DNA of 64,000 nucleotides from Candidatus Parcubacteria bacterium (GTDB lineage: Bacteria; Patescibacteriota; Minisyncoccia; Phycocordibacterales; JAKAEA01): contig CAWDXL010000002.1 of NCBI GenBank assembly GCA_963806325.1, positions 64,250 through 128,249 of the forward strand, given 5' to 3'. The notes under the pieces are model-generated. The model was not told the DNA's origin. It saw only the letters and a program-made list of their open reading frames with translations, and did not search any database. Made by a program: the position numbers and the translations under genes. Each line of letters begins with the position of its first letter. The first letter of the stretch is position 1. Positions 2 to 6,337 of this stretch are shown here, piece after piece.

Positions 2-172
2 GAAACCTTCACCTGGTTCCCCGAGGATCGCTTCCCCGACGACTTGGTTGCGCTCGGCTATTGGGGTCCGGGCAACCGCGTGGTCGGGTTCAGCCGGGGC
101 CGCTCGGGCCTTCGGTATCCGTCTGGTGGGGCTCGTGTGGCAATGTCTGTTCCCCTTGCTCTTGTTCCTTAA
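2..172 (+). CDS. 3' end of DGR target gene (variable C-terminal, C-type-lectin/FGE-like region); the gene body lies upstream of the window
   Basis: Frame 2 is open from the window edge to TAA 170-172. It translates as ...ETFTWFPEDRFPDDLVALGYWGPGNRVVGFSRGRSGLRYPSGGARVAMSVPLALVP*. It contains the VR. The track ORF 48..251 is in a different frame. Confidence 0.7.
   Translation, partial: ETFTWFPEDRFPDDLVALGYWGPGNRVVGFSRGRSGLRYPSGGARVAMSVPLALVP
31..148 (+). repeat. DGR variable repeat (VR)
   Basis: Aligns colinearly with 410-527 (offset 379). By manual alignment there are 26 mismatches, and 25 of them fall where the TR has adenine. Confidence 0.85.
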
Positions 173-220: not shown

Positions 221-409
221 ATTTTCGTATATACTTCTGATACGGTTGTGAAATTGATTGTGCAAATGTGCAATAACAGTTTGCCGTGAACAAAGACATT
301 GCGTGTCTCATTTCATACTACGCACGATATACCACGTGCTAACTCAGGAAATGGCAGAACAGCAACTCTTCTGTTTCTGGTGACATGGACGAAGTGAGAC
401 ACTAACACG

Positions 410-527
410 CTTCCCCGACGACAAGGTTGCGAACGGCAATTGGAATCCGGACAACCGCAAGGTCAGGTTCAACCGGAACAACTCGGACAATCGGAATCCG
501 AACGGTGGAGCTCGTGTGGAAATATCT
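410..527 (+). repeat. DGR template repeat (TR)
   Basis: Adenine-rich copy of the VR. In the target frame it reads FPDDKVANGNWNPDNRKVRFNRNNSDNRNPNGGARV, with the AAC/AAT codon richness typical of TRs. Confidence 0.85.
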
Positions 528-539
528 CGCAGAGGGCTT

Positions 540-887
540 TCATGATGGAAGCTCTTTTTGCGCTATGTAGCTGATCCAACCATTCGTCATTTTAGAAATT
601 TCTACAATTTGCCCTCCAAGCCGCAGATATGTTTTGGAATCTATAATGCCTAGTTCGTGCTCTGTCCGAACAAGGTGTTTGAGCACTTCTATTTTAATGC
701 GTAGTATTTCAAGCGGAATTTTCTTCTGGTATCGTGGTTTAAATGCAGACTCTACCGCAAGTGACAATACTTCTATACATAGCGTCTCTATAGTTGCATG
801 TATGCCAAGTTTGTCTCTTTTTGAAAACGTGCCACTCGTGCCGTAAATATCTTTATGCAGTATTCTTATGGCATGAATAACGGGCAA
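540..887 (-). CDS. avd: Avd-like four-helix-bundle protein (23S rRNA intervening-sequence protein family)
   Basis: 115 aa. The C-terminal ...KTYLRLGGQIVEISKMTNGWISY matches the four-helix-bundle/Avd pattern. It sits between the TR and the RT but on the opposite strand. Confidence 0.6.
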   Translation of the reverse strand: MPVIHAIRILHKDIYGTSGTFSKRDKLGIHATIETLCIEVLSLAVESAFKPRYQKKIPLEILRIKIEVLKHLVRTEHELGIIDSKTYLRLGGQIVEISKMTNGWISYIAQKELPS

Positions 888-1014
888 AGTCGCATCGGGG
901 GGGGGGCGTCATACTTGTCATTTTTATGGTGTAATATCTGTTGAGAATTTACTAGCTGCCTGGAAAGAATTTAGGAAAGGAAAGAGATCAAAAGCCGATG
1001 TTGCCGAATTTGAG

Positions 1015-1923
1015 ATGAATCTGGAGAATAATCTATTTGATTTACACCACCGTCTCGTCTCGGGAACGTGGAAGCCTGATCCGTATGAGGCATTTTTTGT
1101 CCACGATCCGAAACTGCGAAAAATCCACAAAGCGACGGTTCGAGACAGGGTACTCTACCAGGCAGTGTACCGTGCATTGTATCAGATATTTGACTCGGGC
1201 TTTATTCACTACTCATTTTCTTCCCGCAATCGCAAGGGGACGCATGCAGGAATGATGGCGCTCGAACACTATATCAGAAAAGTCAGTAATAATTACCGCC
1301 AGTCTGGGTACGTGCTTAAATGCGACATCAGAAAATTCTTTGATTCTATAGACCAGGATATTCTCCTTGGTCTCATACGGAAGAAAATAACCGACACCGA
1401 TCTTATTCTGCTGATACAGAAAATTATTGTTTCTTTCTCAACAGTGCCTGGCAAAGGACTGCCGCTCGGCAACGTCACGAGCCAGCTTTTCGCCAACATC
1501 TACATGAATGAGCTTGACCAGTATGTGAAGCGTGAACTTAAAGCCAAATACTATGTGCGCTACTGCGATGATTTTGCGATAGTTTCGGATTCAATACAGT
1601 ATCTTGAAAAATGCATTGAAGATATGAAATGCTTTTGTACAACAAAACTTCTTCTTGATCTTCATCCGCACAAAATTGTTTTAAGAAAGATTCATCAAGG
1701 AATGGATTTTTTGGGTTATGTCATGTTGCCTCATAGACGTGTATTGCGTACTCATACAAAGGTGAGGCTACTCAAAAAACTGACTGATCTAAAAACAGCT
1801 GTTGAAAAGAGAACTGCTGAGCAAGAATTTCTAGAACAATCAGTGCAGTCCTACCTTGGCATGTTATCTCACTGCAAAGGCGAAAAAATCAAGACGCAGA
1901 TTGAGCGGGTGTTTTGGGATTGA
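1015..1923 (+). CDS. DGR reverse transcriptase; the true N-terminus probably extends upstream to about 873-907
   Basis: Carries the motifs LPLGNVTSQLFANIYMNELD and YVRYCDDF. The in-frame upstream sequence RHTCHFYGVISVENLLAAWKEFRKGKR is the conserved RT N-terminus but has no canonical start in the current frame. Confidence 0.9.
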   Translation: MNLENNLFDLHHRLVSGTWKPDPYEAFFVHDPKLRKIHKATVRDRVLYQAVYRALYQIFDSGFIHYSFSSRNRKGTHAGMMALEHYIRKVSNNYRQSGYVLKCDIRKFFDSIDQDILLGLIRKKITDTDLILLIQKIIVSFSTVPGKGLPLGNVTSQLFANIYMNELDQYVKRELKAKYYVRYCDDFAIVSDSIQYLEKCIEDMKCFCTTKLLLDLHPHKIVLRKIHQGMDFLGYVMLPHRRVLRTHTKVRLLKKLTDLKTAVEKRTAEQEFLEQSVQSYLGMLSHCKGEKIKTQIERVFWD

Positions 1924-1978
1924 TGGAGAGGAAGAGTACCGTAAGCGAAAAATAAATCTGTTATAGGAAAATCAGATT

Positions 1979-2180
1979 TTAGCTGGCCTTAGCCATATCC
2001 TTATATTTCTCAACTACTGATCTCTGTTCCTCAGTGGCTTCTTTTAATACCTGTTTAATAACCTTGGTTTTTTCTTTTGCTTTTGCATTCAAAAAGAAGT
2101 CAGAAAAGTCGTCTTTTTTCTAGATCAGTCACAGGAATAGTCGGTGTTTTACCAGTGATTTTCTTAATAAATTCAATCAT
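1979..2180 (-). pseudogene. Small hypothetical ORF interrupted at a T6/A6 run
   Basis: MIEFIKKITGKTPTIPVTDLEK.. continues in another frame as DFSDFFLNAKAKEKTKVIKQVLKEATEEQRSVVEKYKDMAKAS*. The shift is near 2114-2119. Confidence 0.35.
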
Positions 2181-4433: not shown

Positions 4434-6337
4434 CTACAGCAGACTCTCAGGATCAATGTTGATGCTCATATTGTGCGGTAATGACCGAAGATCGGCAAGG
4501 AGGGTCTTATCAACCCAATTTTTACGCTCTATTTTTATAAGTGCATGCATTACAAGTTTGTTATTGACGAGCTCAATAAACGCCGGGAATACCAACGGAT
4601 TGTAATTTTTAAGTGATGCTTCAATGATCTTAATATCCTCGGCTATGGCATCGCGGGAGTTGTTGGCTGTTATTTTTATCAGCATACTGAAGGGTGGGTA
4701 CTCAAGTTTTTTCCGTTCCTCAATTTCTTCGCGGTAAAAGTCCATAAGATTTCCTTTTGCTGCATAGTCGAATACATGGCTTGTACGCGAACGGGTTTGG
4801 ATGATAAAACGCCGCTTGGCAATGCCGCGGATGCGGAGCAAAATGCTCATGATTTTTTCATTGATGCGGAAGTCGGGGATTGAGAAAAAGAGAATCAATT
4901 GCGGCCACAGCTGCATTTTCAATCGGTCTTTCAAGATATCCAAGCGCCATCTCGGTGCCAAGAAGGATGCTGCCGGGAGATTCATAAAAAGCCTCAGCCA
5001 TCTCAAGAGCCTGTTTGTGCGTGCGTACAGAATCTTTGTCCATTTTAAAAATTTTCGTATCAGGAAACATGTGCTCCAGTGTCTCTGCGATAAGCTCAAT
5101 GCCGATGCCAAGCGTGGTGAGTCTCCAGCTGCCGCAGATTTTACAGCGTTCTTCGGCACTCCGGCGATCGCCGCAGCGATGACAGAGAAAAAAATTCTTT
5201 TTGCCCGCATGTAAAATTATTGGGGCGCCGCAGCGGTATGTTACGGTCGTACCGCAGTCTCCGCACACCGTCATTGGCGAAAGGCCGCGCCGGGCGGCAA
5301 AAATAAAGAGATGCCGGTTTTCCTGCTTATTTTCTCTCACAAGGTCTTCAAGCTCATCGCTCAATATTCTAAATTCGGGCGTTTCAAGGGTTTTATATCT
5401 TTTCATATCAATAATAATCGTTTCAGTTGTCGATATGGAACGGAACTTAAGCGGTGCAAATTCGGCCATTTCTGTGGATCGCGTGCGCCAGACTGTTTCG
5501 GTGCGCAACAAAACATCTCCAAACACAATCCGCGCGCCGAGCTTGCGGCACGTAGATCTCGGCAAACGTGCGCATGTCGACAAACGGCCGTGCGTGGCCC
5601 TTGAACCCATTTGAGTTTTCGTGCTCAATGACGATGGTGCCAATATCTCTGCGCGGAATACTTAAAAATGCACCGGTTGCAATAATAAGTACGGGATGTT
5701 CTTCCTGCAGTGCAGCATTCCACGTAGCAACAATGTCTTTTTTTGTGATTGATGCATTTAATACAAACGTGAATTTCTCGATGCCTTTTGGGAGCGCCTC
5801 AAAAATTCTTTTTGTATCTTGGATTGTTGGCAGACAGAAAAAAACAGATTTTTTGCGCGCAAATTGCTCGCGAATCAGGCTTTTATAATTACTGAAACGA
5901 TCCTCTCTCTCATCGGCCTGGAGAACATAGATTCGCTGTCACCCAGGTGTTCCGGCGTCTGTTCCGAGTCTGTACAGGCATCAGCTTGTCAGCAGATTCA
6001 AGAATAATTTTACTGGTAACTGCGGCAGAGATGCTGCCGGGCGTACCGGCAAAAAAGTCAGCGAGCCTCCTGCGCGGCGTTGATAAATTCTGGCAGAAAA
6101 ATTTGAGCCGGCTTCATTTTGCTGTCGGCTTTGCGAATGGCAAATGACGAATTTTTGAGTTCGGCTTTTGATTTTTCGGCCGGCCGTGAGCTTAAAACTA
6201 GTGCTGGTACGTGGCGATTGCGGAGAGGGAATGTGAATAATAAACCGGGCTGTACATCTACGGCTGAGAAATAGGAAAGCGAGAAGGATACCAATGCCGC
6301 GAGAAATAGGGGTGACATCAAGAATAACCATACCCAC
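4434..6337 (-). pseudogene. priA: Primosomal protein N' (PriA), interrupted by at least 5 frameshifts
   Basis: PriA-like segments are spread over three frames. They are VILDVTPISRGIG / LSYFSAVDVQPGLLFTFPLRNRHVPALV / DFFAGTPGSISAAV / YVLQADERE...IVIEHENSNGFK / Cys4 region CGDCG..CHRCG..CKICG / C-terminal YPPFSMLIKI... The gene is in priA-def-fmt synteny. Confidence 0.7.

Follow-up and report, generated by a model that had tools for sequence, protein, structure and literature searches.

A poly-G tract within the overlapping 5' ends of the RT and avd genes of a Candidate Phyla Radiation DGR, conserved among related loci and probably acting as a phase switch

How can the RT of this DGR be translated from its very beginning? 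In the 64-kb stretch of DNA analyzed here (the window, by which we mean the whole stretch), the conserved body of the RT starts directly after a run of G's, where its GRH is aligned with KRH of the Bordetella phage bRT, and the canonical ATG upstream of the run stands in another frame. The G run and the out-of-frame ATG had been pointed out in the first-pass annotation, and reading of the sequence confirms them: the run at 897-906 consists of exactly 10 G's; there is an ATG at 873-875 and a TGA, in the RT frame, at 874-876; and from 877 to 1014 the RT frame contains no ATG, GTG or TTG, the listed ORF starting at 1015. The TGA at 874-876 is followed by ATA ACG, where some homologs carry ATG. 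It had also been stated that a run of nine G's would connect ATG 873 to the conserved RT N-terminus, and it does: the translation is then MNNGQSRIGGGRHTCHFYGVISVENLLAAWKEF..., and with one G removed from G10 the reading is MNNGQSRIGGGRHTCHFYGVISVENLL.... Two explanations had been offered, a homopolymer error in the sequence and a slipped-strand ON/OFF switch.

Judged by its DGR-type RT and by an adenine-specific TR/VR pair, the locus is a DGR (Table 1). VR and TR differ at 26 positions, and at 25 of these TR has an adenine (25 of the 34 TR adenines are altered in VR and nine are not). With mismatches adenine-specific to this degree, the DGR has been active. The open frame that holds VR ends at 172; the target gene is truncated by the left end of the window, and its fragment of 57 aa gave no match in Pfam. 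The layout, TR-(avd)-RT, is typical of Candidate Phyla Radiation (CPR) bacteria. With its target gene/VR, TR, reverse-strand avd and RT in this order and orientation, the window DGR corresponds to architecture B3 as presented in the available text of Wu et al. (2018; PMC5758913), according to which the layout TR-(avd)-RT is found in 90% of the CPR DGR set. An invertible segment around avd was considered and rejected, as no inverted repeats flank 540-887 and a reverse-strand avd is normal for the B3 layout. A scan of 500-1100 for promoter and terminator consensus sequences returned one promoter-like site, situated downstream of the starts, which is what chance would give. A tRNA-Asn gene (GTT) is located on the minus strand at 2315-2387, about 400 nt downstream of the RT gene.

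Table 1. Coordinates of the features of the DGR locus in the window.
Feature	Position	Strand	Remarks
VR	29..148	+	lies at the 3' end of the target gene; pairs with 408-527 as direct repeat D1
TR	408..527	+	direct repeat partner of VR 29-148
avd body	540..887	-	first in-frame start in the G10 state is TTG 887 (115 aa)
RT start codon ATG	873..875	+	reverse complement of the Avd His5 codon CAT
RT/avd 5' leader overlap	873..912		40 nt, head-to-head, with the tract inside
TGA	874..876	+	closes the RT frame upstream in the G10 state
G10:C10 homopolymer	897..906		codes GGG in RT and PPP in Avd in any frame
RT conserved body	907..1923	+	public annotation begins at Met 1015 (P0001, 302 aa)
avd start codon ATG	910..912	-	reverse complement of the RT His13 codon CAT

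The RT matches RVT_1 (E 1.7e-21), and its best solved relative is bRT (8ub7_A), to residues 3-288 of which its residues 11-307 are aligned with E 4e-41; the match to the group II RT profile begins at residue 24. RT homologs, hundreds of which are located in CPR DGR-like loci, include proteins of 344-348 aa whose N-termini span the tract. The full-length RT of the window would have about 349 aa, against the 302 aa of the annotated protein. Among the top 50 homologs, about a quarter are annotated with N-truncated starts, giving 302-332 aa instead of about 345 (P0001, P0005, P0006, P0018, P0027, P0028, P0030, P0035, P0038-P0040, P0042, P0045). Three of the truncated calls were checked (P0001, P0038, P0039); their loci are either out of phase at the tract or overlap avd.

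The avd gene on the opposite strand shares the tract, which the first-pass annotation had not noticed. There the minus strand reads AGT ATG ACG C10 GAT GCG ACT TTG CCC GTT ATT CAT. In the C10 state the avd frame runs into a TGA at 911-909, and with nine C's the ORF reaches the ATG at 912-910 and encodes 123 aa, MTPPPDATLPVIH.... The avd product matches the Pfam profile bAvd over positions 7-106 of 107 (E 1.8e-8; 35.3 bits, below the curated cut-off of 40) and the NCBIfam profile DivGenRetAVD over positions 2-103 of 104 (E 1e-10; 41.9 bits, below the curated cut-off of 80). The length of the tract thus fixes the frame of both 5' leaders: ATG 873 is in the RT frame, and ATG 912-910 in the avd frame, only at tract lengths of 9, 12 and so on, and one and the same change of -1 brings both ATGs into frame.

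G10 is the only homopolymer of G or C of at least 7 nt in the whole 64-kb window, whose GC content is 42%. In dinucleotide shuffles G8 had on average 0.41 matches, and the observed number of three was reached in 3 of 100 shuffles. Within the window alone, the appearance of such a tract by chance is therefore only moderately unlikely; the decisive support comes from related loci, 135 of 152 of which have the tract at the corresponding place. These loci are what was analyzable of 160 loci encoding RT relatives, fetched from species-representative genomes and metagenomes. All those with a name are MAGs of Patescibacteria/CPR, save one record labeled Ignavibacteriae (L043), and the N-terminal parts of their RTs are only 50-77% identical to that of the window. 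At this site, which immediately precedes the conserved R/H, the 135 loci mentioned have a pure G run of at least 6 nt, and 119 of the 152 have one of at least 8 nt. In the 118 loci for which lengths were counted, 10 G's (42 loci) and 9 G's (37) prevail, followed by 8 (13), 11 (10), 7 (8), 6 (5), 12 (2) and 14 (1). GGG is the rarest glycine codon in the same RT genes (17.7%), and three of them in succession are expected in 0.55% of cases; outside the tract site, only 15 other runs of G or C of at least 7 nt occur in 758 kb of the surveyed loci. The upstream flank is conserved too, which is due to its being the antisense of the Avd N-terminus (..PIIH.IRILHK).

At two loci the place of the G tract is taken by other repeats, (GA)7 at about 864-879 in the ON register (L158) and the hexamer GGACCG, repeated about eight times in the 80 nt that precede RT residue 17 (L075), which suggests that the site tolerates or attracts simple repeats in general. 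Three contigs start in or at the tract (L019, L117, L128), and in two loci N gaps touch it (L037, L048); this is consistent with assembly graphs breaking at a run that is heterogeneous in length or hard to read. How long an Avd is called likewise depends on the tract: at G9 there is a call of 58 aa or no call, at G10 one of 124-125 aa.

The relation between the tract and the start codons can be followed in the 118 non-redundant loci where a tract is accompanied by a minus-strand Avd, if phase is defined as the register between the RT and Avd codons. Phase 0, where the codon boundaries coincide, comprises 33 loci; in 32 of them the tract is preceded by an ATG for RT, in 31 an ATG for Avd lies beyond it, and 30 have both. 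In phase 1 (28 loci) such an ATG is available to RT in none and to Avd in three, and in 16 loci neither gene has any start. Phase 2, which is that of the window, comprises 57 loci, with an ATG for Avd in four and an alternative one for RT in 20. This alternative ATG is created by synonymous choices in the Avd codons and gives an N-terminus of the type MIGKV.SGGG, which could represent an RT-only ON state; the window has ATA ACG there. The peptide preceding the RT body in the G10 frame of the window, ITGKVASGGG directly after the stop codon, matches this second type of N-terminus found in some homologs, a match that had also escaped the first-pass annotation.

Thus, the both-ON register is found in 33 of the 118 consensus sequences (28%), and 83 of the 85 out-of-phase loci would regain both ATG-initiated frames by a single change of +1 or -1, which in the window is -1. 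The distribution over the phases, 33:28:57, is uneven (chi-square p 0.002), with an excess of phase 2, that is, of the ON length plus one G. Loci without a tract behave differently: of their 7-8 unique cases, six belong to phase 0 and show ATG/ATG overlaps of 30-63 nt, vs. 33 of 118 among the tract-bearing loci (Fisher p 0.004-0.011).

Length polymorphism of the tract was judged between consensus assemblies, namely those of the window and Logan, of the Hainich groundwater and of a pair of closely related loci. Hainich groundwater samples yielded many contigs that code for the RT P0038. Ten Hainich assemblies (from ENA and Logan), aligned over 2,370 nt, differ only at the tract and in a cluster of seven SNPs. 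Seven of them, among which are contigs with a coverage of 29-107, have G9, and three have G10; at this locus the both-ON length is G10, with which Avd is called with 124-125 aa. Since G10 is present on both of the linked haplotypes that the SNP cluster defines, the change in length must have been recurrent. The cluster itself (seven SNPs in 11 nt, columns 2212-2222 of the alignment of L162-L171, YDKGLIY vs. YDKELVY) lies in a tRNA-synthetase gene (Pfam tRNA-synt_1) downstream of RT and is unlinked to tract length. In the pair of closely related loci the tract is G9 in one (L012) and G11 in the other (L091), the two being otherwise at least 95% identical; L091 has also lost 2 nt about 20 nt downstream of the tract, which brings RT back into frame, and the short out-of-frame stretch in between, GGGGVIVVIFDV, looks like a compensated frameshift. 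Shorter tracts were constant, G7 in six of six assemblies and G8 in three of three; in the population of P0039, G9 was found in both assemblies available. No further comparison within a population came from P0048 and P0101, each present at a single place, or from P0068 and P0080, in which the tract falls within the protein itself.

The exact locus of the window also exists in public data in a G9 version with both genes in frame. Over its 1,677 nt, contig L161, assembled by Logan from run ERR10755936, agrees with window 444-2120 at all positions outside the tract. The tract itself has nine G's there, and Avd is called from ATG with 123 aa, for which PF22296 is the precomputed Pfam match. The G10 of the window is the OFF length, and it may be a real allele as well as a miscall. 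Elsewhere in the window, an A5 run (4884-4888) marks the point where priA passes from one frame to another (4875-4896, minus strand; the gene extends upstream to about 5643). With one base removed, the merged product matches the NCBIfam family PriA (TIGR00595) over positions 141-496 of 509 in a single stretch; the two priA-like ORFs themselves had no match in Pfam. The N-terminal helicase part of PriA seems disrupted too, as the match begins only at residue 48; priA is here a pseudogene or else contains an indel error. A small minus-strand ORF located between the genes for RT and tRNA-Asn (about 1990-2300) is broken at 2111-2116 and 2192-2196 and reads through only with two frameshifts, at A6 and A5 runs on the minus strand. 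The T6 at 2111-2116 is also present in the Logan contig, which ends right after it, at 2121, and the frameshift there is therefore not peculiar to the assembly of the window. A generally error-ridden assembly is argued against by the long intact ORFs elsewhere in the window, of which nine exceed 540 aa; ORFs of at least 90 aa cover 83% of it.

Taking all this together, we consider it reasonably probable, though far from certain, that the tract is a conserved slipped-strand phase switch for both RT and avd, which in the window has the OFF length. The earlier proposal of a slipped-strand switch with G9 as the in-frame length thus gains support from a conserved and length-variable tract that sets the frame of the ATG. 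The comparison of orthologous DGR loci, which had been recommended along with it, revealed such a tract throughout the clade, with its phase deciding whether the ATGs are in frame. The case is made stronger by the fact that the tract sets the frame of the divergent avd as well and does so clade-wide. According to the mechanism we propose, the tract would be a hypermutable simple-sequence repeat, whose length is altered by slipped-strand mispairing during replication. Both start codons lie in the register where the RT and Avd codon boundaries coincide, and this is why one length class (here 9, or 9 plus or minus 3) links both ATGs to the bodies of their genes, any slip by +1 or -1 disconnecting both. 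A change in length would then switch ON or OFF the translation of RT and Avd, both of which would be needed for mutagenic retrohoming; the G10 of the window record would be the OFF length and the G9 of the independent assembly the ON length.

From the observed anatomy of the locus, the conservation of the tract, the differences in its length between assemblies of the same population and the relation of register to start codons, we infer that the length changes by replication slippage at a high rate. It would presumably control protein levels, and the tract appears to have been selected as a switch. The conservation of both ATGs and the purity of the tract are not fully independent evidence in this respect, because they are partly forced by dual coding (by the His codons, and by Gly facing Pro when the registers are aligned). 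Besides, the OFF state may not be absolute in all loci, given the alternative in-frame RT ATG of 20 of the 57 phase-2 homologs, and Avd could start at TTG 887. As for the clade as a whole, we would give even chances to a broader proposal, namely that a whole clade of CPR DGRs (about 80-90% of the sampled loci) carries a heritable and reversible master switch for RT and Avd, and hence for hypermutation, with the consensus mostly OFF and diversification taking place only in rare ON subpopulations, in effect bet-hedging layered on a mutator.

The simplest competing explanation is a miscall in the record: the organism would have G9 with both genes intact, and the tract would be a Gly3/Pro3-coding overlap without any regulatory role. 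The independent Logan assembly, with its G9 on an otherwise identical sequence of 1,677 nt, speaks for it, and the homopolymer error named by the first-pass annotation keeps its place as an alternative; the other short-homopolymer frameshifts in the same record (priA, the small ORF) and the contigs that break at the tract or adjoin N gaps there point the same way. However, consensus errors cannot explain why 85 of the 118 non-redundant loci, which come from many studies and assemblers, are out of phase. In the Hainich population the contigs with a coverage of 29-107 carry the OFF length, and Logan gives both lengths there; moreover, the Logan contig reproduces the T6 frameshift, so not all frameshifts of the record are assembly errors. 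The tract is also dispensable for coding, as seen from the tract-less loci, and yet about 80-90% of loci retain it, contrary to their codon usage. We therefore regard a plain miscall as unlikely, though it deserves to be borne in mind. A different explanation places the event at the RNA level. Long homopolymers promote transcriptional slippage, and reiterative transcription of a G run is known at pyrG of B. subtilis; with RNA polymerase slippage or ribosomal frameshifting on the G/C run, in-frame products would arise from DNA of any tract length, and the tract would be a device for constitutive low-level expression rather than a DNA switch. The phases of the tract-bearing loci are far from ON-dominated, as expected if there were no selection on DNA phase, and tract length is held at 9-10 in most loci. 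Both the 28% of loci in the ON register and the excess of OFF, phase-2 loci would fit such slippage, the former equally well any mechanism that makes the DNA phase irrelevant. Against it stand the tract-less loci, which are almost always in the ON register, so that frame matters when the tract is absent, and the generally lower efficiency of slippage on G/C runs than on A/T runs. Recoding of this kind seems to us decidedly improbable as the explanation of the tract, and it is compatible with switching at the DNA level, the two not being mutually exclusive.

It is also conceivable that G10 is correct and that no switch is needed, RT being made from the non-canonical ATA 877 or ACG 880 (in the frame that reads ITGKVASGGGRH after the stop codon) or from Met 1015, and Avd from TTG 887. 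The upstream peptide in the G10 frame does resemble the MIGKV.SGGG N-termini of homologs such as P0003, P0015 and P0043, but this resemblance follows automatically from the constraint of avd on the other strand, and the window has ATA ACG where homologs of the P0003 type have ATG. An Avd started at TTG 887 covers nearly the whole DivGenRetAVD profile (positions 2-103 of 104); a TTG at this position is nevertheless not conserved, being found in only about one of seven loci. Met 1015 we reject as the true start of RT, as the homologs of 344-348 aa extend through the tract and as such a start would remove about 37 conserved N-terminal residues, whose counterparts are residues 3-39 in bRT and positions 2-25 in the group II RT profile. 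Non-canonical or internal starts are thus hardly credible, and we keep to the tract as a phase switch as the preferred reading.

Little seems to be known about how the activity of DGRs is regulated, particularly in the uncultured bacteria of the CPR, in which DGRs reach their greatest abundance. If RT and Avd are indeed gated by a conserved homopolymer, this would be a simple and general means of control; it would also explain the frequent truncation of RTs in public annotation and would provide a natural example of one repeat that controls two divergent, overlapping genes.

In its RT, akin to bRT of the Bordetella phage, and in the adenine-specific differences between TR and VR, the window DGR is like the known DGRs. 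In the available text of Wu et al. (2018; PMC5758913) we found no mention of RT and avd overlapping head to head in their coding parts, nor of a homopolymer at such a place. The literature search returned no paper linking a DGR with a homopolymer, a frameshift, phase variation or simple repeats, and nothing relevant on phase variation in Patescibacteria.

A close parallel is offered by the poly-G/C contingency loci of Campylobacter, Neisseria, Helicobacter and Bordetella, which are responsible for translational phase variation. As in those loci, a run of about 8-12 G or C lies near the 5' end of the coding region, and the gain or loss of one nucleotide decides whether the ORF is in frame; tract length is not the same in all samples of a population, and it is the longer tracts that vary, the shorter ones being constant. 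With regard to the features that define a contingency locus, G10 at 897-906 is a homopolymer of at least about 7 nt in a 5' coding region whose change by +1 or -1 shifts the ORF, and length polymorphism within one population is seen between consensus assemblies. In contrast to the contingency loci of these four genera, one tract serves here two divergent genes by means of a 40-nt antiparallel overlap; the function predicted to be controlled is a targeted mutator instead of a surface structure; the hosts are uncultured Patescibacteria; and the tract is the only such one in 64 kb rather than one of dozens.

Programmed transcriptional slippage, or reiterative transcription, at homopolymers is known from transposases of IS elements, dnaX of Thermus and pyrG of B. 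subtilis. The locus described here resembles such sites in having a long homopolymer where the leader that bears the start codon joins the body of the ORF. The known cases, however, mostly involve runs of A or T and a single gene. DGRs, the B3 layout and poly-G/C contingency loci are all familiar; what is probably new is their combination, in which one repeat, conserved in a large clade of uncultured bacteria, would gate two divergent and overlapping genes of a targeted mutator.
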